Below are positions 1-29,640 of a stretch of DNA of 32,000 nt, in pieces. The stretch is taken from NCBI RefSeq assembly GCF_042660085.1, contig NZ_JBHSTI010000008.1:600001-632000 (forward strand), in the 5' to 3' direction. The notes below the pieces were generated by a model, which was not told the origin of the DNA, made no database searches, and saw nothing but the letters and a program-made list of their open reading frames with translations. This DNA is from Longivirga aurantiaca. GTDB lineage: Bacteria; Actinomycetota; Actinomycetes; S36-B12; CAIYMF01. The position numbers were made by a program, and so were the translations under genes. Position 1 is the first letter of the stretch, and every line of letters begins with the position of its first letter.

Positions 1-957
1 CGCGCCGCGCGCGCTGCCGATGACGAGCTCGAACAGCCGGTCGTGCAACGCAGGGTCGTGCATCCAGAGCTGCGTCGCGTGGGTGAGGAACCCCAACGAT
101 GTGAGGTCGTCGTCGGCGAGCACCTGCGCCTCGGGCGAGGCCGGAGCCTCCGGCAGCAGCAGCGAGGCGTGCACGGCCGGACGATGCGCGGTGAGGCCGA
201 CGCACGCGATCTCCGCGCGCAGCGGCAGACCCTCGCGCAGCTGCTCGGTGGCGGCCTCGACGCAGCGCCGGTGGAACTCCTCCTCGCCGACCTGCTGGAT
301 CGCCTCGTACGCCGGGCCCGTCGAGGCGAGCATCCGCGCGAACGTCTCGGGGTCCGGGAACTCCCACGCGAAGGGCACCTCGTGACGCCGTACGCCGACG
401 AAGCCCGCCTCGGCAAGGACGGCCTCGCCCACGTCGGGACGCCCGAGCGACTTCATCCGCGCCTGGGCCTCGACCTTCTCCGGCGCGGCCAGGGTGAACG
501 GCAGCAGCGCCCACAGGCCGGGCGACGCCTTGACGTGGCCCCAGGTGGTGACGGCGATGCGGCCGCCCGGACGCAGCACGCGGCAGGCCTCGACGAGCGC
601 CTCCGGCGTCGTGGCCCACAGGCCGCGGAAGCTCGTGACGACGTCGAAGGACGCGTCGTCCCACGGCAGCGCAGCCATGTCGCCGACGCGGATGTCGCCG
701 TCGGGCACGCGGTCGCGCGCGATCGCCGTGAGGCGCGGCGATGCATCGACCCCCGCCACCGTCGCGCCGCGCGCGCGAGCGAGTTCCAGCGCGAGTCCGG
801 ATCCGCAGGCGATGTCGAGCAGGCGATCGCCCGCGCCGACGTCGAGGTGCTGGTGCATCGCGACGTACTCGCGCGACGCGGCCGGCTCGAGCAGGGTGGC
901 GAAGTCGACAGCGCGCCGGCCCCAGCCCTCGTCGACGGTGAGCCACTGGTCGGTCAT
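1..957 (-). CDS. Class I SAM-dependent methyltransferase domain protein; C-terminal end lies beyond the window edge
   Basis: The minus-strand frame is open from the ATG (957-955) to position 1. Hand translation gives MTDQWLTVDEGWGRRAVDFATLLEPAASREYVAMHQHLDVGAGDRLLDIACGSGLALELA..., with SAM-binding motif I (LDIACGSG) and downstream VAGVDASP, FDVVTSF and LRPGGRIAVTTWG motifs. It is missing from the ORF track only because no stop codon falls inside the window. An ATGA start/stop overlap (954-957) links it to the upstream LuxR gene. Confidence 0.75.
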   Translation of the reverse strand, partial: MTDQWLTVDEGWGRRAVDFATLLEPAASREYVAMHQHLDVGAGDRLLDIACGSGLALELARARGATVAGVDASPRLTAIARDRVPDGDIRVGDMAALPWDDASFDVVTSFRGLWATTPEALVEACRVLRPGGRIAVTTWGHVKASPGLWALLPFTLAAPEKVEAQARMKSLGRPDVGEAVLAEAGFVGVRRHEVPFAWEFPDPETFARMLASTGPAYEAIQQVGEEEFHRRCVEAATEQLREGLPLRAEIACVGLTAHRPAVHASLLLPEAPASPEAQVLADDDLTSLGFLTHATQLWMHDPALHDRLFELVIGSARGA

Positions 958-2573
958 CGGGATCCCTCGGTCAGCCCGTGGTCGGTCGCGTAGGTCGCTG
1001 CTGCGACGCGCGATCCGACGTCCAGGGCGGCGTAGATGTTGGCGATGTGCCGGTGCACCGTGTGCTCGCTCAGGTGGAGCTGGCGAGCGATCTCGGCGTT
1101 GCTGAGGCCGGCGGCGAGGAGTCGCAGCACCTCGGTCTGCCGCTCTGTCAGGGGCCCGTCGGCGGGCGTGCTCCTCAGCGGCCCGAGGATGGCCATGGCG
1201 GCGCGCTGCTGCTCGTCGGCGCGCACGTCGTCGGTCCGGCGCAGCGCGGCGGCGAGCTGCAGCCGAGCGTCGGCCTCATCGAACGGCCGCCCGGCGAGAT
1301 GGAAGCGGCGTACGGCGTCCTCCCACTTCTCGATCGCGGCGTCGTCGTCGGCGAGACGCGCCTCGGAGGAGTCTGCGTGCGCGGCGAGCGCGACGGTGCC
1401 GACGCGGTCGGCGATGCGGCGCAGCTCGGCGGCCGCCTGCTGCGCCTCGGCGAGGTTGCCCGCCGCGATGCCCGCGGCCACCGCGACGTCGAGGGCGCCG
1501 ACCCGCTCCAGAAGCTCGTCGCCGCGCATCGATCGGAGGAGCTCGGCGATGGTCGACCATGCACGCGCCGCATCGCCCTGGTCGAGCCGCAGCCGGGCGA
1601 GGCTTGTGACGGCCGCAGGCAGGTAGCCGGCCTGGGCCAGGAGCGCCTCGGCCTCGATGAGCCGGCCCTGCCTACGACGCACCTCGCCGAGCTGGGCGAC
1701 GGCGTCGAGCCGGCTCATCCGCTGCGATCGCTCGAGCCGGGACATCACATCGACCAGCGTCGACTCGGCGCCGGCGGAGTCTCCGCTCGCCAGCTGCACC
1801 GTGGCGTACTGCGTTCGGCAGACGGCGAACAGCGGGGCCAGCTCGTGCCGGACGCAGATGTCCTCGACGCGGGCGCACCAGTCACCGGCGCGCGCGAGGT
1901 CGTGCGTCTCCTGGCAGGCGCTGATGAGCCAGCAGCAGATCTTGCCCATCCACATGAGGCTCTCGACGTCGCCAGCTGTCGCCGCGGCGGCGGCCGAGTC
2001 GAGCGCAGCCATGCCGGGCACGACATCGCCGCAGCGCACGTGCGCCAGCCCCTCGAGGGCCTGCCCGACGATGGCGAGGTCGTCGTCACCGGTCGCCCGG
2101 CCCACGGCCGAGGCCCGTGCTGCTGCGTCGAGCGCGGCGGCCGAGTCGTGGTCGACGTTGAGCGCCACCTCGGCCTGCCTCACGGCGAGCCAGCCCGCCT
2201 CGGGCACGTCCGTCGCCCCTGCTAGGAGGTCGGCGGCCCGCGCGAGCCACCCGCGCCCGACTGCGACCCCTCTGCCGAACAGCATGGAGTCGTAGCCGAG
2301 CGAGGCGGCTGCCCGGGCGGCGCCCCTGTCGTCGCCCGTGGCACGGAAGCTGCGGTACGCCGCCTCACGGGCCTCGAGGCAGGTCCCGGCGTCGTCGAGC
2401 CACCACGCCGCCTCCGCGATCCCCTCGAATCCCTCGGGATCGCCGGTCATGGCCGCGAGCACCGTGAACCGGTCGACGGCCTCCGCCCACCGGCCGGCCT
2501 TCAGCGCTGCGCGCGCCTCCTCGCGGTCGTCGGTGGCGGTCATCGGGCCAGCGTGTCGGTCCAGGGTGAGCAC
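954..2573 (-). CDS. LuxR/FixJ-family transcriptional regulator with long helical-repeat (TPR-like) N-terminal region
   Basis: 539-aa ORF. The C-terminus carries a LuxR-type HTH: LTERQTEVLRLLAAGLSNAEIARQLHLSEHTVHRHIANIYAALDV. The N-terminal ~460 aa is Ala/Leu-rich repeat-like helix. The start is GTG at 2573 or ATG at 2543, and neither has a clear RBS. Confidence 0.85.
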   Translation of the reverse strand: MLTLDRHAGPMTATDDREEARAALKAGRWAEAVDRFTVLAAMTGDPEGFEGIAEAAWWLDDAGTCLEAREAAYRSFRATGDDRGAARAAASLGYDSMLFGRGVAVGRGWLARAADLLAGATDVPEAGWLAVRQAEVALNVDHDSAAALDAAARASAVGRATGDDDLAIVGQALEGLAHVRCGDVVPGMAALDSAAAAATAGDVESLMWMGKICCWLISACQETHDLARAGDWCARVEDICVRHELAPLFAVCRTQYATVQLASGDSAGAESTLVDVMSRLERSQRMSRLDAVAQLGEVRRRQGRLIEAEALLAQAGYLPAAVTSLARLRLDQGDAARAWSTIAELLRSMRGDELLERVGALDVAVAAGIAAGNLAEAQQAAAELRRIADRVGTVALAAHADSSEARLADDDAAIEKWEDAVRRFHLAGRPFDEADARLQLAAALRRTDDVRADEQQRAAMAILGPLRSTPADGPLTERQTEVLRLLAAGLSNAEIARQLHLSEHTVHRHIANIYAALDVGSRVAAATYATDHGLTEGSR

Positions 2574-2581
2574 GGCAACTG

Positions 2582-2806
2582 TCAGACGCCTGCGCCGGCG
2601 GCGAGCGCATGCACGTCGGCCGTCGTGAGCGCGTTGCCAGCGATGCCCCAGTCACCGCTCTGCACCTCGCGGATGACGCACCAGGTGACCGGGCGCATGT
2701 TCTCGCCCTCGATTCTCACCATCGCGTCGGTGAGCGTCGTGATGATCTGGTTCTTCTGCTCGGGCGTGAACACGTCCTTGATGACGTTGACCTCGATGAG
2801 CGGCAT
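2582..2806 (-). CDS. 4-oxalocrotonate tautomerase family protein
   Basis: 74 aa, beginning MPLIEVNVIKDVFTPEQK. This gives the catalytic Pro1 after Met removal and the typical tautomerase size and beta-alpha-beta start. An AGGAGG RBS lies upstream on the minus strand (2814-2819). Confidence 0.85.
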   Translation of the reverse strand: MPLIEVNVIKDVFTPEQKNQIITTLTDAMVRIEGENMRPVTWCVIREVQSGDWGIAGNALTTADVHALAAGAGV

Positions 2807-3015: not shown

Positions 3016-3738
3016 TCAGGCTGGCACGGCGGTACGGCGGACTCCGATGACGAGCAGGTAGCCGACCATCCACAGCTCGCCGAGAGCCGCCGGGAACGTC
3101 AGGGCGTCGCCCAGAGCGCCTGCCGAGGGCGCGGCGTAGGTGACGAACGCGTTCAGGATGTAGCCCACGCCGCTGACGATCAGCAGCCACCCGAGCGCGG
3201 CCGGCATCCATCCGGAGCGGCGGGCCAACCAGCCCATGGGGATGAGCCAGAGACCGAAGAAGAGCGCCCCGACGCCCCACAGGTTCCCGCTGAGGAGGTA
3301 CAGGAGCTGTGTGGTCGCGGCCTCGGTCTCCGGGCTGTCGAGGGCGCCGCCGGCGACGTCGATGGCGGTGGCCAGTGCGGCGGCGCTGCCGAGGAGCGCG
3401 ACGGCGTTGACGGTGCCGAAGACCGCGATGGCGCCCGCGGCGAAGGAGTTGACCGAGCGGAACAGCCGGAAGAACCACAGCGCGCACAGCACCTGGGTGA
3501 GCACGAGCCCCAGCTCGAGGACCACGCCGAGTCGGGCGAGGCCCGGGTTCTCGACGAGGTTGGCCAGGGTGGCGGCCGGGTCGCCGTCCACGAAGAGCTG
3601 GGTGCGTACGAACAGGAAGCCGAGGCCGCCCGTGATGGCGACGCCCAGGTAGAGCAGGCCGGTCGCGCGGGCCGTGCGCACCAGGTCGGCGCGGGCCGCA
3701 TCGTGCTGGGGGACGGCGGGTGCCGCGGTCGTGGTCAT
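3016..3738 (-). CDS. DUF4386-like multi-pass membrane protein
   Basis: I take the start at the internal Met (MTTTAAPAVPQHDAARADLVRTARATGLLYLGVAITGG...), which is preceded by GGAGG. About six hydrophobic helices. The motifs FVDGDPAATLANLVENP and LWLIPMGWL match my recollection of DUF4386. The upstream part of the 300-aa track ORF is Arg/Pro-rich and overlaps the tetR promoter. Confidence 0.72.
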   Translation of the reverse strand: MTTTAAPAVPQHDAARADLVRTARATGLLYLGVAITGGLGFLFVRTQLFVDGDPAATLANLVENPGLARLGVVLELGLVLTQVLCALWFFRLFRSVNSFAAGAIAVFGTVNAVALLGSAAALATAIDVAGGALDSPETEAATTQLLYLLSGNLWGVGALFFGLWLIPMGWLARRSGWMPAALGWLLIVSGVGYILNAFVTYAAPSAGALGDALTFPAALGELWMVGYLLVIGVRRTAVPA

Positions 3739-3760
3739 GGGAGAGCCTCCGATCGACGTG

Positions 3761-3795
3761 TGCCTTACGTTGTAAGGCATCCTTACACGGTAAGG
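3761..3795. promoter_or_regulatory. Two tandem inverted repeats (CCTTAC-N3-GTAAGG) in the DUF4386/tetR divergent promoter; candidate TetR operators
   Basis: TGCCTTAC-GTT-GTAAGGCA lies at 3761-3779 and CCTTAC-ACG-GTAAGG at 3781-3795, with centres 18 bp apart. They sit between two divergent starts (3738 and 3821). TAAGGT (3791-3796) could serve as a -10 element for tetR. Confidence 0.55.
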
Positions 3796-3820
3796 TGGTC
3801 GCTGTCCAGGAGGAGGTCCG

Positions 3821-4507
3821 ATGACCGCGGAGGCAGTACGAGGCACGCTCAGCCGCGAGCGCGTGCTGGCGACGGCGATGACCGTGGCCGACGCCGACGG
3901 GCTCGCCGCCGTGACCATGCGGCGGGTGGCGTCCGAGCTCGGGGTGGAGGCGATGTCGCTCTACCACCACGTACCGAGCAAGGAGCAGCTCCTCGACGGC
4001 CTGGCCGACGCCCTCATCGTCGAGATCGCCGCCGCGGCGCCCGAGCGCGACCCGTCCGCGGACTGGCGGACGTCGCTGCGCCACCGGTGCCTGGCGGCGC
4101 GCGAGGTCGTCGTGCAGCACCGGTGGGGTCCCGAGCTCATCGGATCGCGCACCCAGGTGCCGATCAGCCTGGTGGTCCACTTCGAGGCGGTCCTCGCGAC
4201 CATGGTGGACGGCGGCCTCAGCTACCACCTCGCGCACCGCGGCCTGCACGCCCTCGGAAGCATGGTCCTGGGCTACTCGCAGGAGCTCTTCGCCGTGCCG
4301 CAGGGAGACGCCGACCCTGGCGCCGAGGTCGAGGCGCAGATGGCTGCGATGGCGGACTCCTTCCCCCACCTCACGGCGATGGTCGCCTCCGAGCTCCACG
4401 ACAACTCCGAGGACCCGTTGGGCTGGTGCGACAGCAACGCGGAGTTCGAGTTCACGCTCGACCTGATCCTCGACGGCCTCGCCCGCCATCACGACCCGCA
4501 CGCCTAG
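3821..4507 (+). CDS. TetR/AcrR-family transcriptional regulator
   Basis: 228 aa. N-terminal TetR HTH: RERVLATAMTVADADGLAAVTMRRVASELGVEAMSLYHHVPSKEQLLDGL. The C-terminal ligand domain resembles the tetracycline-repressor-like C domain (WCDSNAEFEFTLDLILDGL). An AGGAGGAGG RBS lies upstream. Confidence 0.9.
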   Translation: MTAEAVRGTLSRERVLATAMTVADADGLAAVTMRRVASELGVEAMSLYHHVPSKEQLLDGLADALIVEIAAAAPERDPSADWRTSLRHRCLAAREVVVQHRWGPELIGSRTQVPISLVVHFEAVLATMVDGGLSYHLAHRGLHALGSMVLGYSQELFAVPQGDADPGAEVEAQMAAMADSFPHLTAMVASELHDNSEDPLGWCDSNAEFEFTLDLILDGLARHHDPHA

Positions 4508-4573
4508 CCCTCAGACCCGCACGCGGACGGCTGCCCGGGAGCAGGAACCCGCCGATCCGAGTACGTTCCCATC

Positions 4574-5374
4574 ATGACCACCTCCGTGGGCGCGACCGAA
4601 CGACCGACCGGCGACGAGATCCCCGAGGCCAGGTTCACGCGGCTGCGGCGCTACAACCTGTTCATGGGCGTGCTGCACGCGCTCCAGGCGGTGGCCGTGA
4701 TCGCCCTCGCGACGGCGTTCGCCCTGCCGGTGACCGCAGCCTTCATGACGGGGCCGCCGGGATCCGCGCCGGCGGAGCCCGCGACGCTCTTCAACGTCAG
4801 CATCGCCTGGGGCTGCGCGATCTTCCTCCTGCTCTCGGCAGCGGCGCACTTCGTCATCGCCTCGCCCCAGGTCTTCCCGTGGTACCGCGCCAACCTGCGC
4901 CTCAGCCGCAACTACGCGCGCTGGATCGAGTACTCGCTGAGCTCGTCGGTGATGATCGTGCTCATCGCGCTGATCACCGGCATCAGCGACGTCGCCGCTC
5001 TCGTCGCGCTGTTCGGCGTCAACGTCTCGATGATCCTGTTCGGCCTGCTGCAGGAGAAGTACGAGAAGCCCGGCGGCGGGATGCTCCCGTTCTGGCTCGG
5101 CTGCATCGCCGGCATCACGCCGTGGATCGCGATCGGCATCTACCTCGTGAGCCCGGGAAACGCCGCCAGCCCGCCCGGATTCGTGTACGGGATCTTCGTG
5201 TCGCTGTTCGTCTTCTTCAACTGCTTCGCCCTCAACCAGTGGCTGCAGTACCGCCAGGTGGGCAAGTGGCGCGACTACCTCTACGGCGAGACCGTCTACA
5301 TCACCCTGAGCCTCGTGGCGAAGTCGCTGCTGGCCTGGCAGGTCTTCGCCGGCACCCTCGTCCCGCCGAACTGA
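4574..5374 (+). CDS. Heliorhodopsin (seven-TM retinal protein, inverted topology family)
   Basis: 266 aa and collinear with the heliorhodopsin 48C12 sequence as I remember it. Matching segments: FMGVLHALQAVAVIALA (His23 equivalent), AAAHFVIAS (His80 equivalent), RWIEYSLSSSVMIVLIA (counterion Glu), FGVNVSMILFGLLQEKY, LPFWLGCIAGITPWIAIGIYL, PGFVYGIFVSLFVFFNCFAL, and YITLSLVAKSLLAWQVFAGTL (Schiff-base Lys). Confidence 0.9.
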   Translation: MTTSVGATERPTGDEIPEARFTRLRRYNLFMGVLHALQAVAVIALATAFALPVTAAFMTGPPGSAPAEPATLFNVSIAWGCAIFLLLSAAAHFVIASPQVFPWYRANLRLSRNYARWIEYSLSSSVMIVLIALITGISDVAALVALFGVNVSMILFGLLQEKYEKPGGGMLPFWLGCIAGITPWIAIGIYLVSPGNAASPPGFVYGIFVSLFVFFNCFALNQWLQYRQVGKWRDYLYGETVYITLSLVAKSLLAWQVFAGTLVPPN

Positions 5375-5390
5375 CTCGGCACCAGCACGA

Positions 5391-5732
5391 TCAGGCGCGC
5401 AGCACCTTCTCCATCGGTCGGCCCTTGGCGAGCTCGTCGACGAGCTTGTCGAGGTAGCGGATCTGGCGCATGAGCGGGTCCTCGACCTCCTGCACCTTCA
5501 CCCCGCACACGCTCCCCGTGATGAGGGAGGCGTTCGGGTTCAGGTGCGCCGCGGCGAAGAAGTCCTCGAACGTCGTACCGGCCTCGAGGTGCCGCTGCAG
5601 GGTCGGCTCGTCGAACCCCGTGAGCCACGTGATCACCTGGTCGAGCTCGTCCTGCGAGCGACCCTTGCTCTCCACCTTGGTGATGTAGTGGGGGTAGACC
5701 GAGGCGACGCTCGTCGTGAAGATCCGGTGCAT
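5391..5732 (-). CDS. DUF2200 family protein
   Basis: 113 aa. The sequence [40 protein letters not shown]... matches the conserved DUF2200 N-terminus as I recall it. It is convergent with the heliorhodopsin gene, with a 16-nt gap. Confidence 0.8.
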
Positions 5733-5897
5733 CCCGCGATGCTAGGCACACCGGCCGATCGCCGGACGGCGGTTCCCGCCGGCCCCGTGGTTGCCGGCTG
5801 CACCGGTCAAGTCCCGGGGGGTGCCGTGCCGAAGGAGAAGGGGTAGTACGGCGATCGCGGCGTCCGGCCGCGCGCCGACCGCGAAGGGCCCCAGCGC

Positions 5898-6086
5898 ATG
5901 AGCACCGACACCACGCAGCGCGTCGAGGAGATCCTCCGACCCGTCCTCGGCGACCAGGGCGTCGTCGGCTGGCTCAACCGCCCCCGCCATCAGCTCGGCA
6001 ACCGCACGCCGCGGCAGCTCCTCGTCGACGGCGACGACGACGACAGAGTGCTCGAGATGGCGCTGCGCCTGTCCCGCACCGCCTGA
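5898..6086 (+). CDS. DUF2384 (Xre/MbcA/ParS-type antitoxin C-terminal domain)-like miniprotein
   Basis: 62 aa. WLNRPRHQLGNRTPRQLLVDGDDDDRVLEMALRL resembles the toxin-binding DUF2384 motif (W..p...LgG.tP..ll). It has GC3-rich codons. There is no HTH domain and no adjacent RES or ART toxin gene. Confidence 0.5.
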   Translation: MSTDTTQRVEEILRPVLGDQGVVGWLNRPRHQLGNRTPRQLLVDGDDDDRVLEMALRLSRTA

Positions 6087-6092
6087 CGCAGG

Positions 6093-6488
6093 TCAGTCGA
6101 GCAGCGACGACGCGTCGTCCGGCGCATCGGCGGCGACGGCGAACAGCGCGTCCTCCGGCACGATGTCGAGTGCTGCGATGTTGGTCGCGCGCAGCACGAC
6201 CGGCGCCTGCACCCCCGCGGCGTAGGACTGGAACCAGCGCGCCGCGCAGACGGCCCAGCGGTCGCCCGGCTTCAGGCCGGGGAAGCCGTACTGCGGTGCC
6301 GGCGTGGAGAGATCGTTGCCGGTCTGCTTCTGGTGCTCGAGGAACTCGGCCGTGACGACCGTGCACACCGTGTGCGAGCCGACGTCCTCGGGCCCGGTGG
6401 TCGTGTATCCGTCGCGGTAGAAGCCGGTGATCGGCTCGAGGGAGCAGACCTCGAGGGGCTCGCCGTGCACGTTCGCCTGCAGCTCCAT
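6093..6488 (-). CDS. DUF2237 family protein
   Basis: 131 aa. NVHGEPLEVCSLEPITGFYRDGYTTTGPEDVGSHTVCTVVTAEFLEHQKQTGNDLSTP...GLKPGDRWAVCAARW is the characteristic DUF2237 pattern. Confidence 0.85.
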   Translation of the reverse strand: MELQANVHGEPLEVCSLEPITGFYRDGYTTTGPEDVGSHTVCTVVTAEFLEHQKQTGNDLSTPAPQYGFPGLKPGDRWAVCAARWFQSYAAGVQAPVVLRATNIAALDIVPEDALFAVAADAPDDASSLLD

Positions 6489-6581
6489 GCGCCCACCCTA
6501 GGACGACCCACAGCAGGGGGCACGGCCCGCTGACCGGCGGACAGGATTGGCCTCGGCCGGTTCCTCACGTACGTTGGACGC

Positions 6582-6968
6582 GTGAGCCAGCCGAGCGGTC
6601 GACGCGCAGCCTTCGGGGCCGCGCTCCTCGGCGTGCTGCTCCTGCTGGTGTCCGGAGTCGCAGGCGCCCTGCCCCAGTCGGTCGCCACCGCTCCCGTGGC
6701 CGCCTCATCCTCGGCGCCGTCGCTCGAGGCCTCGACGTCGCAGCTCGGTCATGCCGCGCTGCGCACGTCGCACGCCTCGGTGACCGGTGCCATCGGCGCC
6801 GATCGCAGCGCGGTGGGCAAGGGCTCGTCCTCTGCCGTTCCCGTCACCCTGCTCCTCCTGGCGCTCGCGTGCCTGGCCATCGCCGTACGCCGTGCCCGGA
6901 CGCCGATGTCGTCCGCGCCCGTGCGTGCGCGCGGCTCACGCGCCCCGCCGACGCTCGCGTCCTGCTGA
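6582..6968 (+). CDS. Hypothetical small exported protein (N-terminal signal/TM, Ser/Ala-rich middle, C-terminal TM plus basic tail)
   Basis: GTG start with strongly GC3-biased codons. The N-terminus RRAAFGAALLGVLLLLVSGVAGA looks like a signal peptide. The C-terminus is PVTLLLLALACLAIAVRRART. TACGTT lies 6 nt upstream of the GTG, consistent with a leaderless -10 geometry. I recognise no homologous family. Confidence 0.4.
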   Translation: MSQPSGRRAAFGAALLGVLLLLVSGVAGALPQSVATAPVAASSSAPSLEASTSQLGHAALRTSHASVTGAIGADRSAVGKGSSSAVPVTLLLLALACLAIAVRRARTPMSSAPVRARGSRAPPTLASC

Positions 6969-9803: not shown

Positions 9804-9909
9804 CCTCGGCGCCCTGCCTGGAAGGACTCACGCACCCCTCGTGCCTACGGTGGTGTGGGGACCGGTTGACCCGCTCGTCAACGGGCGCTACGAGGGAGGG
9901 CAGGACGCC

Positions 9910-10722
9910 ATGCAGATCTCGGACAAGGTCTTCGTGGTCACTGGTGCCGGCAACGGCATCGGCCGTGAGGTGACGCTCGAGCTCATCAGGCGCGGTGCCA
10001 GCGTGGCAGCCGTCGACGTGAGCGAGATCGGCCTGGCGGAGACGGTCGCACTCGCACGGACACCGGCCAGCCGGCTGAGCACCCACACGCTGAGCGTGTC
10101 CGACCGTGCGGCCGTGGAGGCGCTCCCCGAGCAGGTCGTCGCCGTCCACGGACAGGTCGACGGCCTCCTCAGCATCGCCGGCATCATCCAGCGGTTCGTG
10201 CGCCTGGAGGAGCTCTCGATCGAGGAGATCGAGAAGGTCATGGCGGTCAACTTCTGGGGCACGCTCTACCTCGACAAGGCGTTCATCCCCTACCTGAAGA
10301 GGCGCCCCCAGGCGGCGCTGCTCAACGTCTCGAGCATGGGTGGGCTCGTCCCCGTGCCCGGTCAAGGCGCCTACGGCGCGAGCAAGGGTGCGGTGAAGCT
10401 GCTGACCGAGACCCTGTACGCCGAGCTGCAGGGCACCAGCGTCGCGGTCACGGTCGTGTACCCGGGAGGCGTCGCGACCAACATCACCGGCAACTCCGGG
10501 GTCGAGGTGCCGAACATGGACAAGGTGATGGCCAGCGGCACGCCCCCGAAGACCACGGCGGTGCACGACGCCGCCCGCCAGATCGTCGTGGCACTGGCCG
10601 CAGGGAAGCCGCGCCTGCTGATCGGCAGCGACGCCAAGACGCTCGACCGGCTCTCGCGGGTGAACCCCACCAAGGCGATCACGACCGTGGCGAAGCAGAT
10701 GCAGAAGCTCCTGGGGGTCTGA
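9910..10722 (+). CDS. Short-chain dehydrogenase/reductase (SDR) family oxidoreductase
   Basis: The start [21 protein letters not shown] contains the TGxxxGIG Rossmann motif. [18 protein letters not shown] (the YxxxK catalytic motif) and PGGVATN are also present. A GAGGGAGGG RBS lies upstream of 9910. Confidence 0.85.
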
Positions 10723-13667: not shown

Positions 13668-14156
13668 TCAGGCGGCCAGCAGGCCGTCGATCTGACCCAT
13701 GGCCTGGCGAAGTCCCTCCTCCATGCCCATCTCGACCATCTGCTCGAGGCTCTCGAGCGAGCTGAAGGTCGAGGTGAGCGTCATGACCACGCCGCCGCCG
13801 GCCCGGTCGACGATGTCGACCTGCATGGAGGTGACGCCCATGCCGTCGAGAGGCGTGCCGTCGTCGTCGGCGAAGCCGTCCTTCACCACGAGCAGGCGCG
13901 GTGCCTCCACCTGCACCACGTCCCAGTAGCCGCGCGGGGTGTCGCCCTCCGGCCCGGTCATGAAGTAGGTGACCCTCCCGCCCGGGCGCAGATCGTGCTC
14001 CTCCACGGTCGCGGGGTACGTCGGCGGCCCCCACCAGCGCTCGAGCTGGCGCGGGTCGGCCCAGAGCTGCCAGGCGCGCTCGGCGGTCACGTCGTACTCG
14101 CCGGTGACCGTCATGGTCAGCCGGTCGAGGTCCTTCTCGATGCTCGTCACGCTCAT
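13668..14156 (-). CDS. SRPBCC-superfamily protein (AHSA1/Aha1-like START fold)
   Basis: 162 aa. AERAWQLWADPRQLERWWGPP...LRPGGRVTYFMTGPEGDTPRGYW is typical of the ArsR-linked AHSA1 family. Its start overlaps the arsR-like stop (TCAT at 14153-14156). Confidence 0.85.
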   Translation of the reverse strand: MSVTSIEKDLDRLTMTVTGEYDVTAERAWQLWADPRQLERWWGPPTYPATVEEHDLRPGGRVTYFMTGPEGDTPRGYWDVVQVEAPRLLVVKDGFADDDGTPLDGMGVTSMQVDIVDRAGGGVVMTLTSTFSSLESLEQMVEMGMEEGLRQAMGQIDGLLAA

Positions 14157-14515
14157 CGCGCCTCTCCTTGGTCGTCGGCCAGTACGTCGGACATGCGGTC
14201 GAACCGGTCCCGCCAGAGCTGCTCGTACGCGTCGAGGAGCGTGCGGGCACGGCGTACCGCCTCGGGCTCACCGGTCACGCGCTGCTCCCTGCCGTGCCTG
14301 CGTCGCGACACGAGCCCCGCCGCCTCGAGGACGGCCACGTGCTTCTGCACGGCGGTCACGCTCATGGGGTAGGCCCGGGCGAGGTTGGACACCGAGTGCT
14401 CGCCGACGAGCACGCGCCGCACGATGTCGCGGCGGGTGGAGTCGGCGAGGGCGTGGAAGAGCCGGTCGACCTCGGAGTCCAAGAGCTGATCTACAACCAT
14501 AAGGTTGTAGATCAT
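14153..14515 (-). CDS. ArsR/SmtB-family winged-helix transcriptional regulator
   Basis: MIYNLMVVDQLLDSEVDRLFHALADSTRRDIVRRVLVGEHSVSNLARAYPMSVTAVQKHVAVLEAAGLVSRRRHGREQ. GGAGG lies 7 nt upstream of the ATG at 14515. An alternative start is the ATG at 14500. Confidence 0.85.
   Translation of the reverse strand: MIYNLMVVDQLLDSEVDRLFHALADSTRRDIVRRVLVGEHSVSNLARAYPMSVTAVQKHVAVLEAAGLVSRRRHGREQRVTGEPEAVRRARTLLDAYEQLWRDRFDRMSDVLADDQGEAR
14488..14513. promoter_or_regulatory. 26-bp palindrome (11-bp perfect arms) overlapping the arsR-like start codon; candidate autoregulatory operator
   Basis: GATCTACAACC-ATAA-GGTTGTAGATC. It is AT-richer than its surroundings and covers codons 1-9 of the ArsR-like ORF. 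Confidence 0.5.
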
Positions 14516-14610: not shown

Positions 14611-14769
14611 TCAGCGACCGAAGAGGCGGTCGACCAGGGACTTCTTCTGCTCGGGCGGGCAGGCGCAGCGCTGCGACTTCGGGACGCCGCGCATGACCTG
14701 GTCGACGTGCTGGCCGCATCCGGCCCACGTCGCCTTGCCGCAGCGTCGGCAGCTCACCTGTCGGCACAT
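14611..14769 (-). CDS. Six-cysteine miniprotein, copy 1 (52 aa), uncharacterised
   Basis: MCRQVSCRRCGKATWAGCGQHVDQVMRGVPKSQRCACPPEQKKSLVDRLFGR. An AAGGAG RBS lies 8 nt upstream. It has GC3-biased codons and a paralog at 20292-20408. It lies directly downstream of the site A palindrome. The track shows it only inside a longer 89-aa ORF. Confidence 0.6.
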   Translation of the reverse strand: MCRQVSCRRCGKATWAGCGQHVDQVMRGVPKSQRCACPPEQKKSLVDRLFGR

Positions 14770-14797
14770 GTCCTGGTCTCCTTCGTCGGGGTTCGCG

Positions 14798-14837
14798 GTA
14801 GCCATCACTATACCCCCGGGGGTATAGTGATGGCTAC
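14798..14837. promoter_or_regulatory. CsoR/CstR-family operator-like palindrome, site A (40-bp perfect; 60-bp with one mismatch pair)
   Basis: GTAGCCATCACTATACCCCC|GGGGGTATAGTGATGGCTAC is perfectly self-complementary. The flanks 14788-14797 and 14838-14847 extend the symmetry with a single mismatch pair. The core ATACCCCCGGGGGTAT is at 14810-14825. TATAGT is present on both strands as a candidate -10 element. Confidence 0.7.
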
Positions 14838-14858
14838 CACGAACCCCAGGAGGACGCC

Positions 14859-15158
14859 GTGACCGCAGGATCCGGGACACCGGCCGCCCAGCACGTCGTC
14901 GAGGACCAGAAGGCCGTGCTGGCCGTGGCCAACCGGCTCAAGCGCGCGCAGGGCCAGCTCGGCGGCGCGATCGCGATGCTCGAGGACGGCAGGTCCTGCC
15001 AGGACGTCGTCACGCTGCTCGCCGCCGTGAGCAAGGCTGTGGACCGGGCTGCGTTCCAGATGATCTCCACCAGCCTGCGCGAGTGCGTCGTGGCCGGCGA
15101 CCAGGACTCCGAGGTCGTGGCCGAGCAGCTGCAGAAGCTGTTCCTGTCCCTGGCCTGA
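14859..15158 (+). CDS. cstR: CsoR/RcnR-family repressor of the CstR (persulfide-sensing) type
   Basis: 99 aa with a GTG start and AGGAGG 5 nt upstream. LKRAQGQLGGAIAMLEDGRSCQDVVTLLAAVSKAVDRAAFQMISTSLRECV is the DUF156 fold. It has the two Cys, but Ser replaces the Cu-ligand His at Cys-4 (SLREC), as in S. aureus CstR (NLIEC) as I recall it. Confidence 0.82.
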   Translation: MTAGSGTPAAQHVVEDQKAVLAVANRLKRAQGQLGGAIAMLEDGRSCQDVVTLLAAVSKAVDRAAFQMISTSLRECVVAGDQDSEVVAEQLQKLFLSLA

Positions 15159-16010: not shown

Positions 16011-17468
16011 TCACTCCGGGATGAAGGACCAGCCGGGCAGGCCCTTCGCCTTGTAGATGAACATGTAGTGGAGCAGGTTCTTCATCCAGTGCCCCGCGAG
16101 CCCGATCTCACCGGTGGTGTCGTCGAGGCTGCGGCCGTAGCCGGGGAAGCGGGCGTAGTCGGGGACGACGGGGTACATCGTCATCGAGGCGGCGGTGCCC
16201 TTCGTGAACCCGGCACCGGCGCTGGCGACGCAGGCTGCGCCCATGTCGGCCATCGAGGCCGTGTGCTCGGGCCTGGTCGCCTTGCCCGTCACCATGTCGG
16301 CGATGCTCTGCGCGACAGCCTTGCCCATGAGCCCCGACGGCATGCCCGTCCGCGGCGGCGCGGGCGAGATGGCCGTGCCCTTCGGGCTCGTGCGCGGTAC
16401 CGAGATCGGGTGGGGCGGGGCGAACGCGATGCCGATGCCGAAGACGTTCGCGTACTTCGGGCTCTGGTACGTGCTCGGCCAGTCCTCGGCCCTGTACTCG
16501 TCGAACTTCTTCGGCGTGTAGTCGGCGTCCACCTTGAGGAACCCGCTCGGCGCGAAGACCTCCGAGCTGATGTCGCTTCCGTCGCGCGCGAACGCCTGCA
16601 GGTCGACGCCGCGGAACGGCGGGAGCAGCATGGCGAAGTCGAAGTCGAGCACGCCGTCGACGCCGTCGAGAGTCTCGTAGTAGAGCCGGCCGTCCTCGAT
16701 CCTCGTCGGGTGCGCACGGGTGATCGAGCGGACGTCGCGCTCGACGAAGAGCGACTCCGTCCAGAGCTGGCTCGTGGTGACGAAGCCCTCCTGCTTGAAG
16801 GTCAGGCCGCCGACGCCGAAGTCGCCGAGCTCGTACTCGTTGGTGAAGTAGACGATCTCGGCGAGGTCGCGCACCCCGGCGGCGCGGAGCTCGTGCTCGA
16901 CGTTGAACGTGTACTCGAACGCCGCGCCCTCGCAGGTGCAGGTGCCGTGGCCGACGCCGATGACCAGGCGCTGCTTCTCGCCGCGCTTGAGCCTGGCGAT
17001 CACCTCGGCGAGGGCCTTGGCGGCCTCCTCGGCGTGGCCGTAGGTGCAGACGGAGTAGGTGTGGCCGTCCGGGCCGAGGCCCGGCGTCGCGCCGAAGTTG
17101 AGCTTGGGCCCGGTGGCGTTGATGACGTAGTCGTACTCGATGCGCTCGACGTGCCCGGTCTTGCCAGGGGCGGTCCACTCGATCTCGACCTTGGGCCTGT
17201 CGGACGAGTCGTCGCCCTCGGGCCACAGCGCCACGGCCTTGGCCTGGTGGTAGGTGATGCCCTTCTTCTTGTAGACCGGTGCGAGCTTGAACGTCACGTC
17301 CTCCGCCGACATCCGGCCGACCCCGACCCAGATGTTGGACGGGATCCAGTTCCAGTTCGAGTTGGGGGAGACCACCACGACCTCGTGCTGCTTGCCCAGC
17401 AGCCGCCGCAGGTGGAGGGCTGCGGTGTGGCCGGAGATCCCGGCTCCCAGGACGACGACGCGTGCCAT
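16011..17468 (-). CDS. sqr: Sulfide:quinone oxidoreductase-like FAD-dependent pyridine nucleotide-disulfide oxidoreductase
   Basis: I take the start at MARVVVLGAGISGHTAALHLRR, which has the GxGxxG FAD fold. SPNSNWNWIPSNIWVGVG is present, along with a second dinucleotide region RLVIGVGHGTCTCEGAAFEY containing a Cys pair, and NVFGIGIAFAPPH. 485 aa. It sits in a sulfide-detoxification gene context. Confidence 0.82.
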   Translation of the reverse strand: MARVVVLGAGISGHTAALHLRRLLGKQHEVVVVSPNSNWNWIPSNIWVGVGRMSAEDVTFKLAPVYKKKGITYHQAKAVALWPEGDDSSDRPKVEIEWTAPGKTGHVERIEYDYVINATGPKLNFGATPGLGPDGHTYSVCTYGHAEEAAKALAEVIARLKRGEKQRLVIGVGHGTCTCEGAAFEYTFNVEHELRAAGVRDLAEIVYFTNEYELGDFGVGGLTFKQEGFVTTSQLWTESLFVERDVRSITRAHPTRIEDGRLYYETLDGVDGVLDFDFAMLLPPFRGVDLQAFARDGSDISSEVFAPSGFLKVDADYTPKKFDEYRAEDWPSTYQSPKYANVFGIGIAFAPPHPISVPRTSPKGTAISPAPPRTGMPSGLMGKAVAQSIADMVTGKATRPEHTASMADMGAACVASAGAGFTKGTAASMTMYPVVPDYARFPGYGRSLDDTTGEIGLAGHWMKNLLHYMFIYKAKGLPGWSFIPE

Positions 17469-17530
17469 GTCTCGTGCTCCTCGACGCAGGTGGCGCAGGC
17501 TGCGTGCGCGGCTCTGCGCACGTCCCGGAC

Positions 17531-17548
17531 CATACCCCCTGGGGTATG
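17531..17548. promoter_or_regulatory. CsoR/CstR-family operator-like palindrome, site B (upstream of sqr)
   Basis: CATACCCCCTGGGGTATG, with 7-bp core arms ATACCCC/GGGGTAT around a CT centre. It lies about 70 nt upstream of the sqr ATG. On the sqr strand the promoter-proximal arm reads GGGGGTATGGT, giving a TATGGT candidate -10. Confidence 0.6.
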
Positions 17549-17681
17549 CGGTTAGGACAGCCTCAGGGATGCGCCGACCCCGTGACCTGCCGCACAACCG
17601 GTCCAGCGTCAGCGCCTGAAGACCGCACCGGAGAGGGTCGCACCCCGGTCTGGGGAACGTCGCCCGTGCAGGCCGAGCCGC

Positions 17682-18497
17682 TCAGGCGAGGACGAGCTGG
17701 GCGGTCTGGTACGCCGCGACCACGAGCAGGAGGACGCCGAAGGTCCGCTGCAGCGCCGCCGACGGGATCCGCGGCTGCAGCACCGCGCCGAGCACGGCGC
17801 CGACCGCCGTACCGACCGCGACGACGGCGGTGAGGCCGCCGTCGACGTGCTCGGTGCCGTGGGCGAGGAAGGCCACGGTCACGTTGACGAGGATCACCAC
17901 GAGAGCGGTTGCGCTCGCGCGCCGCATGGGCATCCTGAGCGCCAGCACCAGGGCCGGGACGGCGATGAAGCCGCCGCCGACGCCGAAGAACCCGGTCACG
18001 AGGCCGACACCCGACGCAAGGAGCACGACCACGGCCCAGTTGGGGTCGGGCAGTGGCTTGTCGTCGTCCTCGGGAGAGGACTCGCTGCGTCCTCGCAGCA
18101 TGCCGTACGCGGCCAGGGCGAGGAGCACCACGAAGCCGGCGAGCTGCACCCGGTCGTCCACGGCGAACGCGAGCCGCGACCCCGCGATGGCGCCCGCGGA
18201 GCCCAGCGCACCGAACATGAGCCCGATGACCCAGTCGACGCGCCCGCCGCGGGCATGGGTGGCGAGGCCGGCGGCCGCGCCGACTCCGACGACGACCAGT
18301 GAGGTCGTGGCCGCGGCGTCGAGCGACAGCCCGAGCGCCAGCAGGATCGGCACCGCGAGCACACCGCCGCCGCCTCCGAGCAGGCCCATGACGGCGCCGA
18401 GCGCGAGGCCGGCGGCGACAGGCAGCAGGAGGGGCACGGGTGGGTGACGACGCTCAGGCCACGCGGCCCGGCGCGCCCTGCGCGTCGACGACCGCAC
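17682..18497 (-). CDS. TauE/SafE-family sulfite/organosulfonate exporter
   Basis: Multi-pass membrane protein with repeated Gly-rich helices: GAVMGLLGGGGGVLAVPILL and VTGFFGVGGGFIAVPAL. The start is uncertain. GTG at 18497 overlaps the rhodanese gene by 44 nt. GTG at 18437 gives 252 aa and begins directly at TM1. Confidence 0.82.
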   Translation of the reverse strand: MRSSTRRARRAAWPERRHPPVPLLLPVAAGLALGAVMGLLGGGGGVLAVPILLALGLSLDAAATTSLVVVGVGAAAGLATHARGGRVDWVIGLMFGALGSAGAIAGSRLAFAVDDRVQLAGFVVLLALAAYGMLRGRSESSPEDDDKPLPDPNWAVVVLLASGVGLVTGFFGVGGGFIAVPALVLALRMPMRRASATALVVILVNVTVAFLAHGTEHVDGGLTAVVAVGTAVGAVLGAVLQPRIPSAALQRTFGVLLLVVAAYQTAQLVLA

Positions 18498-18798
18498 CGC
18501 CGGACGCCTGCCATGCGCCCATGCCGCCGGCGACGTTCCAGGCGTCGACCCCCAGCGCGATCAGGTGAGCGGTCGCCGACTTCGAGCGGTTGCCGCTGCG
18601 GCAGACGACGAGAACGCGCTGCCCGGGAGCAGGCGCGAACCCGCCCGACGGCAGATCGCCGAGGGGCACGTGCACGGCGGTCGGAGCGTGTCCGGCCACC
18701 CACTCGGCAGGCTCGCGGACATCGAGCAGGACTGCGCCGTCACCGACGAGGCGCAGGGCCTCCGCGGCGTCGACCGTGGGAAGGGTCTGGTTGTCCAC
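18454..18798 (-). CDS. Single-domain rhodanese (sulfurtransferase) with active-site Cys
   Basis: The GTG start is preceded by AAGGAG. VDNQTLPTVDAAEALRLVGDGAVLLDVREPAEWVAGHAP...VLVVCRSGNRSKSATAHL contains the CRxGxR[ST] catalytic loop. 114 aa. Confidence 0.85.
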   Translation of the reverse strand: MDNQTLPTVDAAEALRLVGDGAVLLDVREPAEWVAGHAPTAVHVPLGDLPSGGFAPAPGQRVLVVCRSGNRSKSATAHLIALGVDAWNVAGGMGAWQASGGAVVDAQGAPGRVA

Positions 18799-18806
18799 GT
18801 CGCTCC

Positions 18807-20258
18807 TTAGTCGGCGTACGCCGCACCGAGAGTGGCCTGCGTGACCTGCTCGGCGGGGGTCCAGGCGCGGATCACGCGCGCGGTGGCGATGTCGGCGTCC
18901 AGGTGGACGACGGTGAGGCCTGCACGATCGAGGAGCGACGCCGCGGCCGAGGCGCGGAAGCCTGAGCCGCAGTAGACCCACACCGTCGCGTCGCGACCCG
19001 CGTGAGCTGCGGCACGGGACCAGGTCACGATCTTCTCGACGCTGCCCATGAGCTCGTGCAGGGGTACGTGCCGGGCGCCGGTCACGTGGCCCTCCTGCCA
19101 CTCGGTGCGGCGCCGGGTGTCGATGACGATCAGATCGGGATCGGCGGCGAGGGCCTCGTCGAGCTCGTGGAACTCGGCCCTGCGGTACGACGTGACGTCG
19201 GACGGCGCGAGCGCCCAGTCGCCGGGCTCGCCGTCGTTGAAGGCGGCCGGGCGGTCGATCCCGATCCGGGCGAGCTCGCGCTGCATGGCGGTCACGCGCT
19301 CCGGCGTGTCGCCCAGCAGGGTCAGAGGTGTGCCCCACGGGATCAGCCACCCGAGGTAGGTGACGGCGTTGCCGTCGCCGTCGAAGGAGAGGGTGCCGCG
19401 CAGGTGGCCCTCGGCGAAGACCCGACGTGAGCGCAGGTCGACGACCCACTCGCCGGCGTCCATGCGTCGCCGCAGCTCGGCGGCTTCGGCCCGCTCGGGC
19501 AGGGACAGGTCGATCGGGCCGGGGCCCGCCTGGTTGGCCGGTCCCATGTGCGCGTAGTACGCCGGGTAGGCGTCGAGGCCCGCGATCAGCTCGGCGACGA
19601 ACTCGTCCTCGTCGACCGTGCAGGCCGGGTTGGCCACGGCCTGCTGGCCGATGGTCGACTCGAGCCCGACGGTCGCGCTGGCGCTGCAGAACGAGCCGAA
19701 GCCGTGGGTCGGGAACACGGCGGCGTCGGGCTCGACCTCGGTCGTCAGGCGTCGGACGCTGCGCCACTGCGCGTGCGCGAGTTCGTGCGTGTGGTCCGGG
19801 CCGATGAGGTCGGGACGTCCGACGCTGCCGAACAGCAGCGAGCCGCCGGTGAACGCCGCGGCGTCCTTGCCGTCGACCGCGACGACGTACGAGAGGTGCT
19901 GCGGGGTGTGCCCAGGAGTGTGCACTGTGCGCCAGGCCATCCGCCCGCTCGTGAAGGTCTCACCGTCGCCGAGCTGGGTCGCGTCGTAGTCGAGCGCATA
20001 GCCCGTGGGGACGACGTACACGGCGCCGAGCTGTCGGGCGAGGACGAGTCCGCCCGACACGTAGTCGTTGTGGATGTGGGTCTCCACGACATGCGTCACG
20101 GTGAGCCCGTGCTCGGCGAGCACCGCCTCGACCCGGTCGAGGTCGCGCTGCGGGTCGACGACGACGGCGAGGCCGTCGAGGTGGACCACGTACGAGCGGT
20201 CACCGAGGTTCGGCGTCTCGATGACGACGACGTCGGGCAGGGCGGGCGCCGGGTGCAT
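18807..20258 (-). CDS. cstB: CstB-like persulfide dioxygenase (MBL fold) fused to a pseudo-rhodanese and a catalytic rhodanese domain
   Basis: 483 aa. The MBL motif is THIHNDYVSGG (H-x-H-x-D-Y rather than HxHxDH). HTPGHTP is present. The middle rhodanese-like domain lacks the Cys (LLGDTPE). The C-terminal rhodanese has VWVYCGSGFRAS. This is the same three-domain order as S. aureus CstB. Confidence 0.85.
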   Translation of the reverse strand: MHPAPALPDVVVIETPNLGDRSYVVHLDGLAVVVDPQRDLDRVEAVLAEHGLTVTHVVETHIHNDYVSGGLVLARQLGAVYVVPTGYALDYDATQLGDGETFTSGRMAWRTVHTPGHTPQHLSYVVAVDGKDAAAFTGGSLLFGSVGRPDLIGPDHTHELAHAQWRSVRRLTTEVEPDAAVFPTHGFGSFCSASATVGLESTIGQQAVANPACTVDEDEFVAELIAGLDAYPAYYAHMGPANQAGPGPIDLSLPERAEAAELRRRMDAGEWVVDLRSRRVFAEGHLRGTLSFDGDGNAVTYLGWLIPWGTPLTLLGDTPERVTAMQRELARIGIDRPAAFNDGEPGDWALAPSDVTSYRRAEFHELDEALAADPDLIVIDTRRRTEWQEGHVTGARHVPLHELMGSVEKIVTWSRAAAHAGRDATVWVYCGSGFRASAAASLLDRAGLTVVHLDADIATARVIRAWTPAEQVTQATLGAAYAD

Positions 20259-20291
20259 GAGGTCTCGTCTCGTCTCGTGGGGCAGGGAGGG

Positions 20292-20408
20292 TCAGCGGCA
20301 GGTGCAGCGGCGGTCGGTCGACACGTCGGCCATGACGAGATCGACGTGCATGCCGCAGCCGGACCAGGTGACCTTGCCGCAGCGGGAGCAGGTGGCGGGG
20401 CTGCACAT
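20292..20408 (-). CDS. Six-cysteine miniprotein, copy 2 (38 aa), uncharacterised; first ORF of the cstB-like operon
   Basis: MCSPATCSRCGKVTWSGCGMHVDLVMADVSTDRRCTCR. GGAGGA lies 6 nt upstream. The Cys and His positions are identical to copy 1. It is below the ORF-track cutoff as a stand-alone gene and is visible only as the C-terminal end of a 168-aa junk-prefixed ORF. Confidence 0.55.
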   Translation of the reverse strand: MCSPATCSRCGKVTWSGCGMHVDLVMADVSTDRRCTCR

Positions 20409-20463: not shown

Positions 20464-20481
20464 TATACCCCCGGGGGTATC
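20464..20481. promoter_or_regulatory. CsoR/CstR-family operator-like palindrome, site C (upstream of miniprotein 2 and the cstB-like operon)
   Basis: The 16-bp perfect palindrome ATACCCCCGGGGGTAT lies at 20465-20480. On the minus strand it reads GGGGGTATACT, giving a TATACT candidate -10. Its centre is about 64 nt upstream of the ATG at 20408. Confidence 0.6.
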
Positions 20482-21818: not shown

Positions 21819-22277
21819 TCAGGGGGCGGAGGTTCCGTCGCGGCCGTAGTCGTCGGCGAGTCGGACGACGTCGTGCTGCCACCCCACGCCGGCCGTCGAG
21901 GCCTCGACGAGCACCACATCGGTCACCGCGGTGATGCGGTGCACGACCGTCGCCGGCACGTGCACCGTGTCGCCCGCGATCATCGTGGTGCGCTCCAGCA
22001 TTCCTGCGGACGGGCCGGCCTCGAACACCATCTCTCCGCTGATGACGCTGATGGTCTCGTCCTTGCGGTGGTGCAGCTGGAGGCTGAGCGAGCGTCCGGC
22101 CAGCACGTGGATGAGCTTGCCCGCGTAGCCGTTGCTGCCGTCGGCGAAGAGGGTCTCGTGGCCCCAGGGCTTGTCCTGCCGGGCGGCCTCGAGGTGCTCG
22201 GCGTCGGGGGCGTCGGGCAGCACGGGCGGGGAGAGGAACGGGTTGTTGCTCGGCCTGAGGCCGTTGGGCATGGTCAT
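21819..22277 (-). CDS. Cupin-domain protein resembling the type II phosphomannose isomerase C-terminal cupin
   Basis: 152 aa. KPWGHETLFADGSNGYAGKLIHVLAGRSLSLQLHHRKDETISVISGEMVFE...GDTVHVPATVVHRI contains the LSLQ.H..R.E cupin pattern. An ATGA overlap links it to the upstream gene (22274-22277). Confidence 0.78.
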   Translation of the reverse strand: MTMPNGLRPSNNPFLSPPVLPDAPDAEHLEAARQDKPWGHETLFADGSNGYAGKLIHVLAGRSLSLQLHHRKDETISVISGEMVFEAGPSAGMLERTTMIAGDTVHVPATVVHRITAVTDVVLVEASTAGVGWQHDVVRLADDYGRDGTSAP

Positions 22278-28427: not shown

Positions 28428-28512
28428 CTTTGTCCTCACCGAACAATCTAGGGGGGTGGTTTCACGCCCGACGGACAAGAGTTTAGACCCTCCGGTGAAT
28501 CACCCTGGTCTC

Positions 28513-29631: not shown

Positions 29632-29640
29632 GAGGCCGGA

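Follow-up and report, generated by a model that had tools for sequence, protein, structure and literature searches.

A canonical 48C12-type heliorhodopsin gene with a putative leaderless promoter in a 32-kb DNA stretch of actinomycete origin

The stretch of DNA analysed here, 32,000 nt of contig NZ_JBHSTI010000008.1 (hereafter the window; 72% GC), harbors a heliorhodopsin gene, and the coordinates of this gene, its promoter elements, its key codons and its neighbours are collected in Table 1. The start codon is the earliest possible one downstream of an in-frame stop, and the GC content at third codon positions (GC3) of the frame was 0.95. Several short open reading frames (ORFs) run across the gene on the opposite strand; these were judged by codon-position GC, left out of the Pfam search and treated as non-coding, because their pattern (low GC1, GC3 of 0.97–0.99) matches that of the frame antisense to heliorhodopsin. 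Comparison with eight orthologs gave a ratio of nonsynonymous to synonymous substitution rates (dN/dS) of 0.14–0.20, demonstrating purifying selection. About 8000 database proteins matched the product at E <= 1e-20, the best one being 91% identical, and an exact-sequence look-up of the protein retrieved no identical record.

Table 1. Features of the heliorhodopsin locus, with positions counted from the first letter of the window
Feature	Position	Strand	Basis and remarks
Heliorhodopsin coding sequence	4574..5374	+	266 aa plus stop; 48C12 subfamily
Start codon ATG	4574..4576	+	ATG or GTG at the aligned position in orthologs; no Shine-Dalgarno sequence upstream
-10 hexamer TACGTT (TANNNT type)	4562..4567	+	6 nt before start codon; conserved in orthologs
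Semi-conserved stretch CCCGGGAGCAGGAACC (orthologs CCCGGGAAGCGCGATC)	4534..4549	+	Anchored alignment of 13 orthologs
His35 codon (48C12 H23)	4676..4678	+	Alignment; in VLHALQ
His92 codon (48C12 H80)	4847..4849	+	Alignment; in AAAHFVIAS
Glu119 codon, Schiff-base counterion (48C12 E107)	4928..4930	+	Alignment; in RWIEYSLSSSVMIVLIA
Lys250 codon, retinal Schiff-base lysine (48C12 K241)	5321..5323	+	Alignment; motif S246-x3-K250 in SLVAKSLLAWQ
LuxR-type regulator	954-2573	-	Pfam
Tautomerase	2582-2806	-	Pfam
DUF4386 gene	3016-3780	-	Pfam; in-frame start ATG 3780
Two perfect palindromes CCTTAC-N3-GTAAGG	3763-3777, 3781-3795	.	Between tetR and the divergent DUF4386 gene
TetR-family regulator	3821-4507	+	Pfam TetR_N and TetR_C_1; own Shine-Dalgarno sequence CAGGAGGAGG before ATG
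DUF2200 gene	5391-5732	-	Convergent; ends 16 nt past the heliorhodopsin stop
62-aa ORF	5898-6086	+	Xre_MbcA_ParS_C (former DUF2384), sub-threshold (23.5 bits against 24.5)
DUF2237 gene	6093-6488	-	Convergent; 0.7 kb downstream of heliorhodopsin
SecDF, SDR and phosphomutase genes	Beyond DUF2237 (SDR: 9841-10722)		Pfam
Starts of leaderless-layout genes besides heliorhodopsin	3780(-), 5732(-), 6488(-), 6582(+), 21793(-), 28439(-), 31212(-)		TANNNT 5-6 nt upstream

A first-pass annotation, made from the letters of the sequence and a list of its ORFs, had called the product a heliorhodopsin with all signature residues and collinear with heliorhodopsin 48C12, and this identification was borne out by profile hidden Markov models, residue mapping onto 48C12 and a structure model, all of which agree. 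The profile search that it had proposed returned full-length family matches above the curated cutoffs, namely Pfam PF18761 Heliorhodopsin (E 9.6e-103, 343 bits against a cutoff of 26.7, profile positions 1–242 of 242) and the HeR equivalog NF038020 of NCBIfam (337 bits against a cutoff of 100). The 48C12 structures in the PDB (6su3, 6su4, 6uh3 and 9ljj) were matched with an E value of 4e-86 over residues 22–264; the 246 aligned positions are 56% identical and interrupted by just two short indels, and the N-terminus of the window protein is 12 residues longer. All four peptides quoted for the functional sites were found and map as they had been assigned, and the alignment to the structurally characterised 48C12 upheld both the lysine (K250 = K241) and the glutamate (E119 = E107); moreover, S246 aligns to S237 in the SxxxK motif of helix 7.

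Residue-by-residue mapping of the 44 structurally important 48C12 residues named in PMC7049168 revealed that 41 are the same in the window protein, K250, E119, H35, H92 and S246 among them. The helix-3 counterion E119 is accompanied by the stabilising serines S88 and S123 (S76 and S111 in 48C12), and the polar Schiff-base cavity set is identical (N28, Y104, N113, R116, Y120, E161 and E239, corresponding to N16, Y92, N101, R104, Y108, E149 and E230), as are the retinal-pocket residues (N150, M153, I154, W184, F215 and Q222) and the helix-E proline/tryptophan. The three differences, R91W, K218R and R231T, are at basic positions on the cytoplasmic face. In an alignment with 27 homologs of 63–89% identity, the key residues, including S246 and K250, were invariant. 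The AlphaFold model built from this alignment (predicted local distance difference test score 83, predicted template modeling score 0.80) has seven long helices and an AB-loop hairpin (strands 50–55 and 70–76), and its top PDB matches were the 48C12 structures, with template modeling (TM) scores of 0.87–0.92 and a root-mean-square deviation of 1.7 Å; for 6su3 the TM score was 0.87–0.91. The archaeal TaHeR (Thermoplasmatales archaeon; PDB 6is6) came next in the structure search (E 2e-60, TM 0.84) and shares both the fold and the Schiff-base residues, yet it is more distant at 44–45% identity in the structural alignment and has an archaeal host; type-1 rhodopsins were found far below (TM at most 0.64). 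The ORF thus encodes a canonical 48C12-type heliorhodopsin, with family membership, conserved residues and fold all demonstrated. By analogy with the characterised members, the protein would have the inverted membrane topology with a cytoplasmic N-terminus, and retinal binding and a sensor function may be expected of it.

For its expression, the annotation had proposed an own leaderless promoter, and the comparison with other genomes gives the proposal strong support. The hexamer TACGTT lies exactly 6 nt ahead of the ATG, and no Shine-Dalgarno (SD) sequence of the GGAGG kind occurs between them. Close orthologs, defined by at least 85% identity, were gathered from genome and metagenome collections and by exact-protein look-ups, and a TANNNT hexamer before an ATG or GTG without an SD sequence was detected at 19 of 20 loci (the window and 18 of 19 close orthologs), its distance to the start being kept despite differing flanks. 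The hexamer, being TACGTT, TAGGTT, TACATT or TACGGT, is 6 nt from the start (-12 to -7) at 18 loci, and L003 has TATTTT at 7 nt (-13 to -8). No GGAG, GAGG or AGGA was found at -17 to -5 in the window or in 12 of the 13 orthologs compared, and only one further TANNNT was present within 100 nt upstream across 14 of the close-ortholog genes. A MAFFT alignment of eight upstream regions showed the T, A, T and T columns of the hexamer to be invariant at an overall column identity of 61%. Several orthologs carry an in-frame stop 9 nt ahead of the ATG, making their starts unambiguous. Because the close orthologs reside in at least 12 unrelated neighbourhoods, the hexamer moves with the gene and not with a neighbour.

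In leaderless actinobacterial mRNAs, as in Mycobacterium and Streptomyces, a TANNNT -10 element ends 6–7 nt before an ATG or GTG that is also the transcription start. The window gene shares with them the hexamer, the spacing and the absence of an SD sequence, with both ATG and GTG used; it has no recognisable -35 hexamer. The ATG at 4574 would accordingly double as the transcription start of a leaderless mRNA, and the sigma factor reading TACGTT is probably of the housekeeping type. Within the 32-kb window TANNNT is very rare, with 24 occurrences (8 on the + strand and 16 on the - strand), and 8 of the 24 sites are placed 5–6 nt ahead of the starts of real-looking genes, i.e., those for heliorhodopsin, DUF4386, DUF2200, DUF2237, a 128-aa ORF at 6582, an ALO-like oxidase, a PucR regulator and an S4-domain protein, suggesting that leaderless genes are routine in this organism. 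In the wider family, the geometry was detected at 23 of 55 actinobacterial heliorhodopsin loci versus 0 of 55 control codons inside the gene, and at only 1–2 of 22 Chloroflexota loci, which mostly have AAGGAGG-type sites; leaderless geometry is therefore a habit of the phylum rather than a property of heliorhodopsins. It is also noteworthy that two public ortholog calls, in L163 (4001-5071; P0002, 356 aa) and L169 (3300-4202; P0011, 300 aa), are over-extended at the N-terminus, and both contain internally the conserved -10 hexamer and an ATG aligned to the window start, as gene callers tend to over-extend such leaderless genes.

About 20 nt upstream of the hexamer, the stretch CCCGGGAGCAGGAACC showed 60–75% conservation per column. 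As a motif, CCCGGGAGCAGGAACC/CCCGGGAAGCGCGATC was rejected, its significance being too low and the stretch not distinguishable from residual homology; it is possibly a degenerate -35 region, and the CCCGGGAAGCGCGATC form, which accompanies the gene, might conceivably be bound by a regulator responding to light or stress. A promoter of the extracytoplasmic function type, GGAAC-N15-CGTT, was likewise rejected, since GGAAC is not conserved in the orthologs (GGATC, CGATC and CGGTC) and TANNNT at a fixed 6-nt distance fits every sequence; the spacing is also shorter than that of SigH/SigR/SigE-type promoters. A scan of 3600-6600 found no sigma-70 consensus, -35 consensus or intrinsic terminator, folding of the spacer between tetR and the heliorhodopsin gene yielded no stable structure (z +1.7), and an Rfam scan of the whole window returned no matches.

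The neighbours named in the annotation were confirmed by Pfam for DUF4386, TetR, DUF2200 and DUF2237, whereas the DUF2384-only peptide fell just below the threshold, and the gap of 66 nt after the TetR gene was reproduced (tetR stop at 4505-4507). Downstream, no co-transcription with heliorhodopsin is expected because DUF2200 is convergent and ends 16 nt after the stop. The gene order of the window was found in one other genome only, L007, a metagenome-assembled genome (MAG) of an uncultured Actinomycetes member whose neighbouring genes are 74–93% identical. A tblastx comparison of 5-kb flanks revealed other flanks for the remaining close orthologs, with at least 12 contexts in all, including SpoIIM/RibD_C, AbiEii/MarR, MscS, zf-UBP/DUF1349, DabA and SnoaL. 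The expectation that every new genomic context of a heliorhodopsin is informative was therefore not borne out here, as the neighbourhoods of the close orthologs are of about a dozen unrelated kinds: in this clade a single context is no reliable ground for guilt-by-association, because the gene moves as a self-contained unit. The locus itself indicates no partner, the gene standing alone with its own putative leaderless promoter and a convergent gene 16 nt downstream, and the TetR and DUF neighbours are judged to be bystanders, TetR not being part of the heliorhodopsin unit.

Membership of the heliorhodopsins goes with a monoderm host (PMC8612252), and such a host is what the locus points to, given the Actinomycetes label of the syntenic L007 and the 72% GC of the window. 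Other close orthologs are labelled as Sporichthyaceae, Nanopelagicales or Actinomycetota MAGs, and the host of the gene is a high-GC actinomycete, probably from soil or sediment; 48C12, for comparison, stems from a freshwater actinobacterial fosmid from Lake Kinneret.

Several further features of the neighbourhood were recorded. The 62-aa ORF, whose sub-threshold match is to the toxin-binding C-terminal domain of Xre/MbcA/ParS antitoxins, lacks a toxin partner and is 74% conserved in L007, and a complete RES-Xre toxin-antitoxin pair (L166 2008-3188) was detected upstream of heliorhodopsin in the P0005 context; the 62-aa ORF may be a toxin-antitoxin remnant. The unannotated 128-aa ORF (6582-6968, +) has TACGTT 6 nt ahead of its GTG and no significant Pfam match; faint resemblance to DUF6153/DUF202 hints at a small membrane protein. 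In addition, the S4-domain gene of the window (30826-31212) is 82% identical to that of L166 (7376-7822), and its distance to heliorhodopsin is 25 kb in the window and 3.5 kb in L166-L168, as if the lineage of the window had undergone a large insertion or rearrangement separating the two genes.

Considering these data together, the locus is read, with a probability of roughly 0.8, as a functional heliorhodopsin sensor of the 48C12 type expressed from a single-gene leaderless unit, with its partner and its retinal supply encoded elsewhere and its neighbours as bystanders. In mechanistic terms, a seven-helix, inverted membrane protein would bind all-trans-retinal at Lys250, with Glu119 as the counterion and His35 and His92 bordering the Schiff-base cavity. 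Like the bacterial heliorhodopsins that have been characterised, it would pump no ions and would act as a slow-cycling light sensor that signals through direct contact with a second protein, whose activity it changes. Transcription would begin at the A of the ATG, driven by the -10 element TACGTT of the housekeeping type, and the mRNA would be leaderless and lack a ribosome-binding site; the gene would be expressed as a single-gene unit ahead of a convergent one, and the partner protein and the retinal supply would be encoded elsewhere in the genome. Three observations weigh against this reading. First, the close ortholog in L085 has a GAGGAG ribosome-binding site in place of the -10 geometry, and members of the clade can therefore do without leaderless expression. 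Second, the substitutions R91W, K218R and R231T could change partner binding. Third, there is no terminator or hairpin between tetR and the heliorhodopsin gene, which makes a read-through transcript possible.

The last of these would fit an arrangement in which heliorhodopsin is the second gene of a tetR operon, controlled by the TetR repressor and its ligand, and the two genes are indeed on the same strand, 66 nt apart, and remain paired in the closest genome, L007. The palindromes, likely TetR operators, argue otherwise: the two copies before DUF4386 and tetR are the only matches to CCTTAC-N3-GTAAGG with 0 mismatches, and no copy was found in 4508-4573 upstream of heliorhodopsin, even when 3 mismatches were allowed. 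The second palindrome holds the leaderless -10 element of DUF4386 (TACCGT, 3792..3787), together with TAAGGT upstream of tetR, and tetR and DUF4386 thus have the look of a classic autoregulated TetR/target pair whose target is an uncharacterised membrane protein. Moreover, the other approximately 12 contexts of close orthologs have no TetR neighbour and yet show the same -10 and start geometry. General knowledge of leaderless initiation holds that an internal ATG without an SD sequence is poorly translated from a long transcript, and the same would apply to the heliorhodopsin start. A tetR operon is thus unlikely, and a single-gene unit with its own promoter is preferred.

With regard to the chromophore, the observation that no retinal-synthesis genes are nearby held for the whole 32-kb window: the coding-like ORFs gave no Pfam match for phytoene synthase or desaturase, lycopene cyclase, Blh, carotenoid oxygenase or type-1 rhodopsin. 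This absence, and surveys in which blh is rare beside heliorhodopsins and co-occurs mainly where another rhodopsin is present (bioRxiv 10.1101/2021.02.16.431466), could be taken to mean that the protein is made but remains chromophore-free or is decaying in an organism without a retinal pathway. By the same published norm, a missing blh near the window gene is no surprise, and rhodopsin-bearing actinobacteria without blh exist (PMC12817590); according to the cited account of Nakajima 2020, blh-less actinobacteria form rhodopsin pigment with external retinal or by another route. The strong purifying selection (dN/dS as above) and the retention of every retinal-pocket and Schiff-base residue also speak for a protein that works with its chromophore, making a decaying or pigment-free one very unlikely. 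Elsewhere in the window, the gene for the Pyr_redox_2 protein (16011-17681) is clustered with those for a regulator of the CsoR-like kind (14802-15158), a TauE exporter (17682-18560) and the MBL-rhodanese protein at 18807-20291, and the cluster looks like one for sulfide/persulfide detoxification. The FA_desaturase gene (29641-30822) lies beside those for a ferredoxin-reductase-like protein (FAD_binding_6/NAD_binding_1/Fer2) and a PucR-type regulator (-) within 27213-30822, a set that resembles a DesA3/oxidoreductase-like fatty-acid desaturase system rather than carotenoid enzymes.

The sensor assignment itself has to be weighed against a light-driven transporter or an enzyme. A viral heliorhodopsin has been shown to transport protons, and for the 48C12 subfamily there are proposals of an enzymatic role or one in lipid remodelling. 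That subfamily, to which the window protein belongs, is one whose bacterial members are reported not to pump ions (PMC11109279), 48C12 is hydrophobic throughout its extracellular half (PMC7049168), and no DegV or DUF2177 neighbour flanks the window gene, so that a transporter or enzyme appears quite unlikely and a sensor is retained. Bacterial heliorhodopsins have a photo-activated state that is long-lived, and three of them, AbHeR, TfHeR and OcHeR, were shown to bind and modulate a glutamine synthetase, a photolyase and an ABC exporter from their own operons (PMC9529153, PMC9769723, PMC11109279). The window protein is of the same family as these three and would presumably share their slow photocycle and contact signalling; unlike them, its gene has no adjacent co-directional partner. 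None of the ten neighbour groups of PMC11109279 (glutamine and NAD synthetases, photolyase, MerR, TerC, ABC transporter, SDR, alpha/beta hydrolase, DUF2177 and DUF2238) flanks it as a co-directional operon partner, the nearest SDR gene being 4.5 kb off, on the far side of SecDF. Roughly 61% of heliorhodopsin genes stand alone in their operon (PMC11109279), and by its layout the window gene would belong to this 'helR alone in operon' class.

Outside the heliorhodopsin region, a 42-nt perfect palindrome with the core ATACCCCCGGGGGTAT was found at 14797-14838 ahead of the gene for the CsoR-like repressor, and the core recurs at 20465-20480 upstream of the MBL-rhodanese/TauE/Pyr_redox_2 cluster. 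Each copy is followed by one of two paralogous Cys-rich minus-strand ORFs, at 14611-14769 (52 aa) and 20292-20408 (38 aa), which share the pattern MC..C.RCGK.TW.GCG.HVD and neither of which has a Pfam match; the sites and genes resemble a sulfide/persulfide regulon of the CstR type that includes a small, hitherto undescribed Cys-rich member. Another perfect palindrome, GATCTACAACC-ATAA-GGTTGTAGATC (14488-14513), overlaps the start region of an ArsR-type regulator gene (about 14264-14494, -), which precedes an AHSA1/SRPBCC gene (13668-14267, -). Furthermore, an 811-aa ORF (22274-24709, -) matches GH130 (mannoside phosphorylase) in its C-terminal third only; no Pfam family matched the N-terminal 570 residues, the coding bias of the region is weaker, and the ORF may represent two genes or a fusion.

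The remaining alternative concerns the small cytoplasmic proteins encoded downstream, DUF2237 and/or DUF2200, as signalling partners of the heliorhodopsin. DUF2237 is convergent downstream of heliorhodopsin in two arrangements: in L166-L168 it is 76% identical to that of the window and 5 nt from the heliorhodopsin stop, and in the window and L007 it lies further off (2 kb downstream in L007). DUF2200 directly follows heliorhodopsin, again convergently, in the window, L007 and L085 (58% identical). Beyond this clade, DUF2237 is reported to rank second among the gene groups of marine Flavobacteriia by bias towards proteorhodopsin, and to occur in 66% of rhodopsin-bearing prokaryotes versus 17% of prokaryotes overall; Synechocystis needs it for normal phototaxis, which its knockout reduces (PMC5932025); its association with rhodopsin- and photosystem-bearing genomes has been re-examined in bioRxiv 10.64898/2025.12.11.693642. 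No paper in the literature searched mentions DUF2237 together with heliorhodopsin. Against a partnership, the orientation is always convergent, precluding co-transcription, and both families are missing from the other approximately 10 contexts of the clade and from some 150 loci of less closely related heliorhodopsins. Moreover, all positive cases are close relatives, and the simplest reading is one ancestral arrangement eroded by rearrangement, the recurrence of DUF2237 representing one clade and probably one event. Signalling through DUF2237 and/or DUF2200 is accordingly considered improbable, and a functional tie of heliorhodopsin to the small cytoplasmic orphan family DUF2237 in this actinobacterial clade equally doubtful, with the adjacent genes preferably seen as bystanders.

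In summary, the window adds one more well-preserved 48C12-type heliorhodopsin, from a high-GC actinomycete, to a well-known kind of protein, and little is learned from its context about the output of heliorhodopsins. In a field without a general output mechanism for these proteins, the adjacency of DUF2237 offers a cheaply testable hypothesis, and if DUF2237 were indeed the cytoplasmic partner of heliorhodopsin, this would provide a function for both orphan families.

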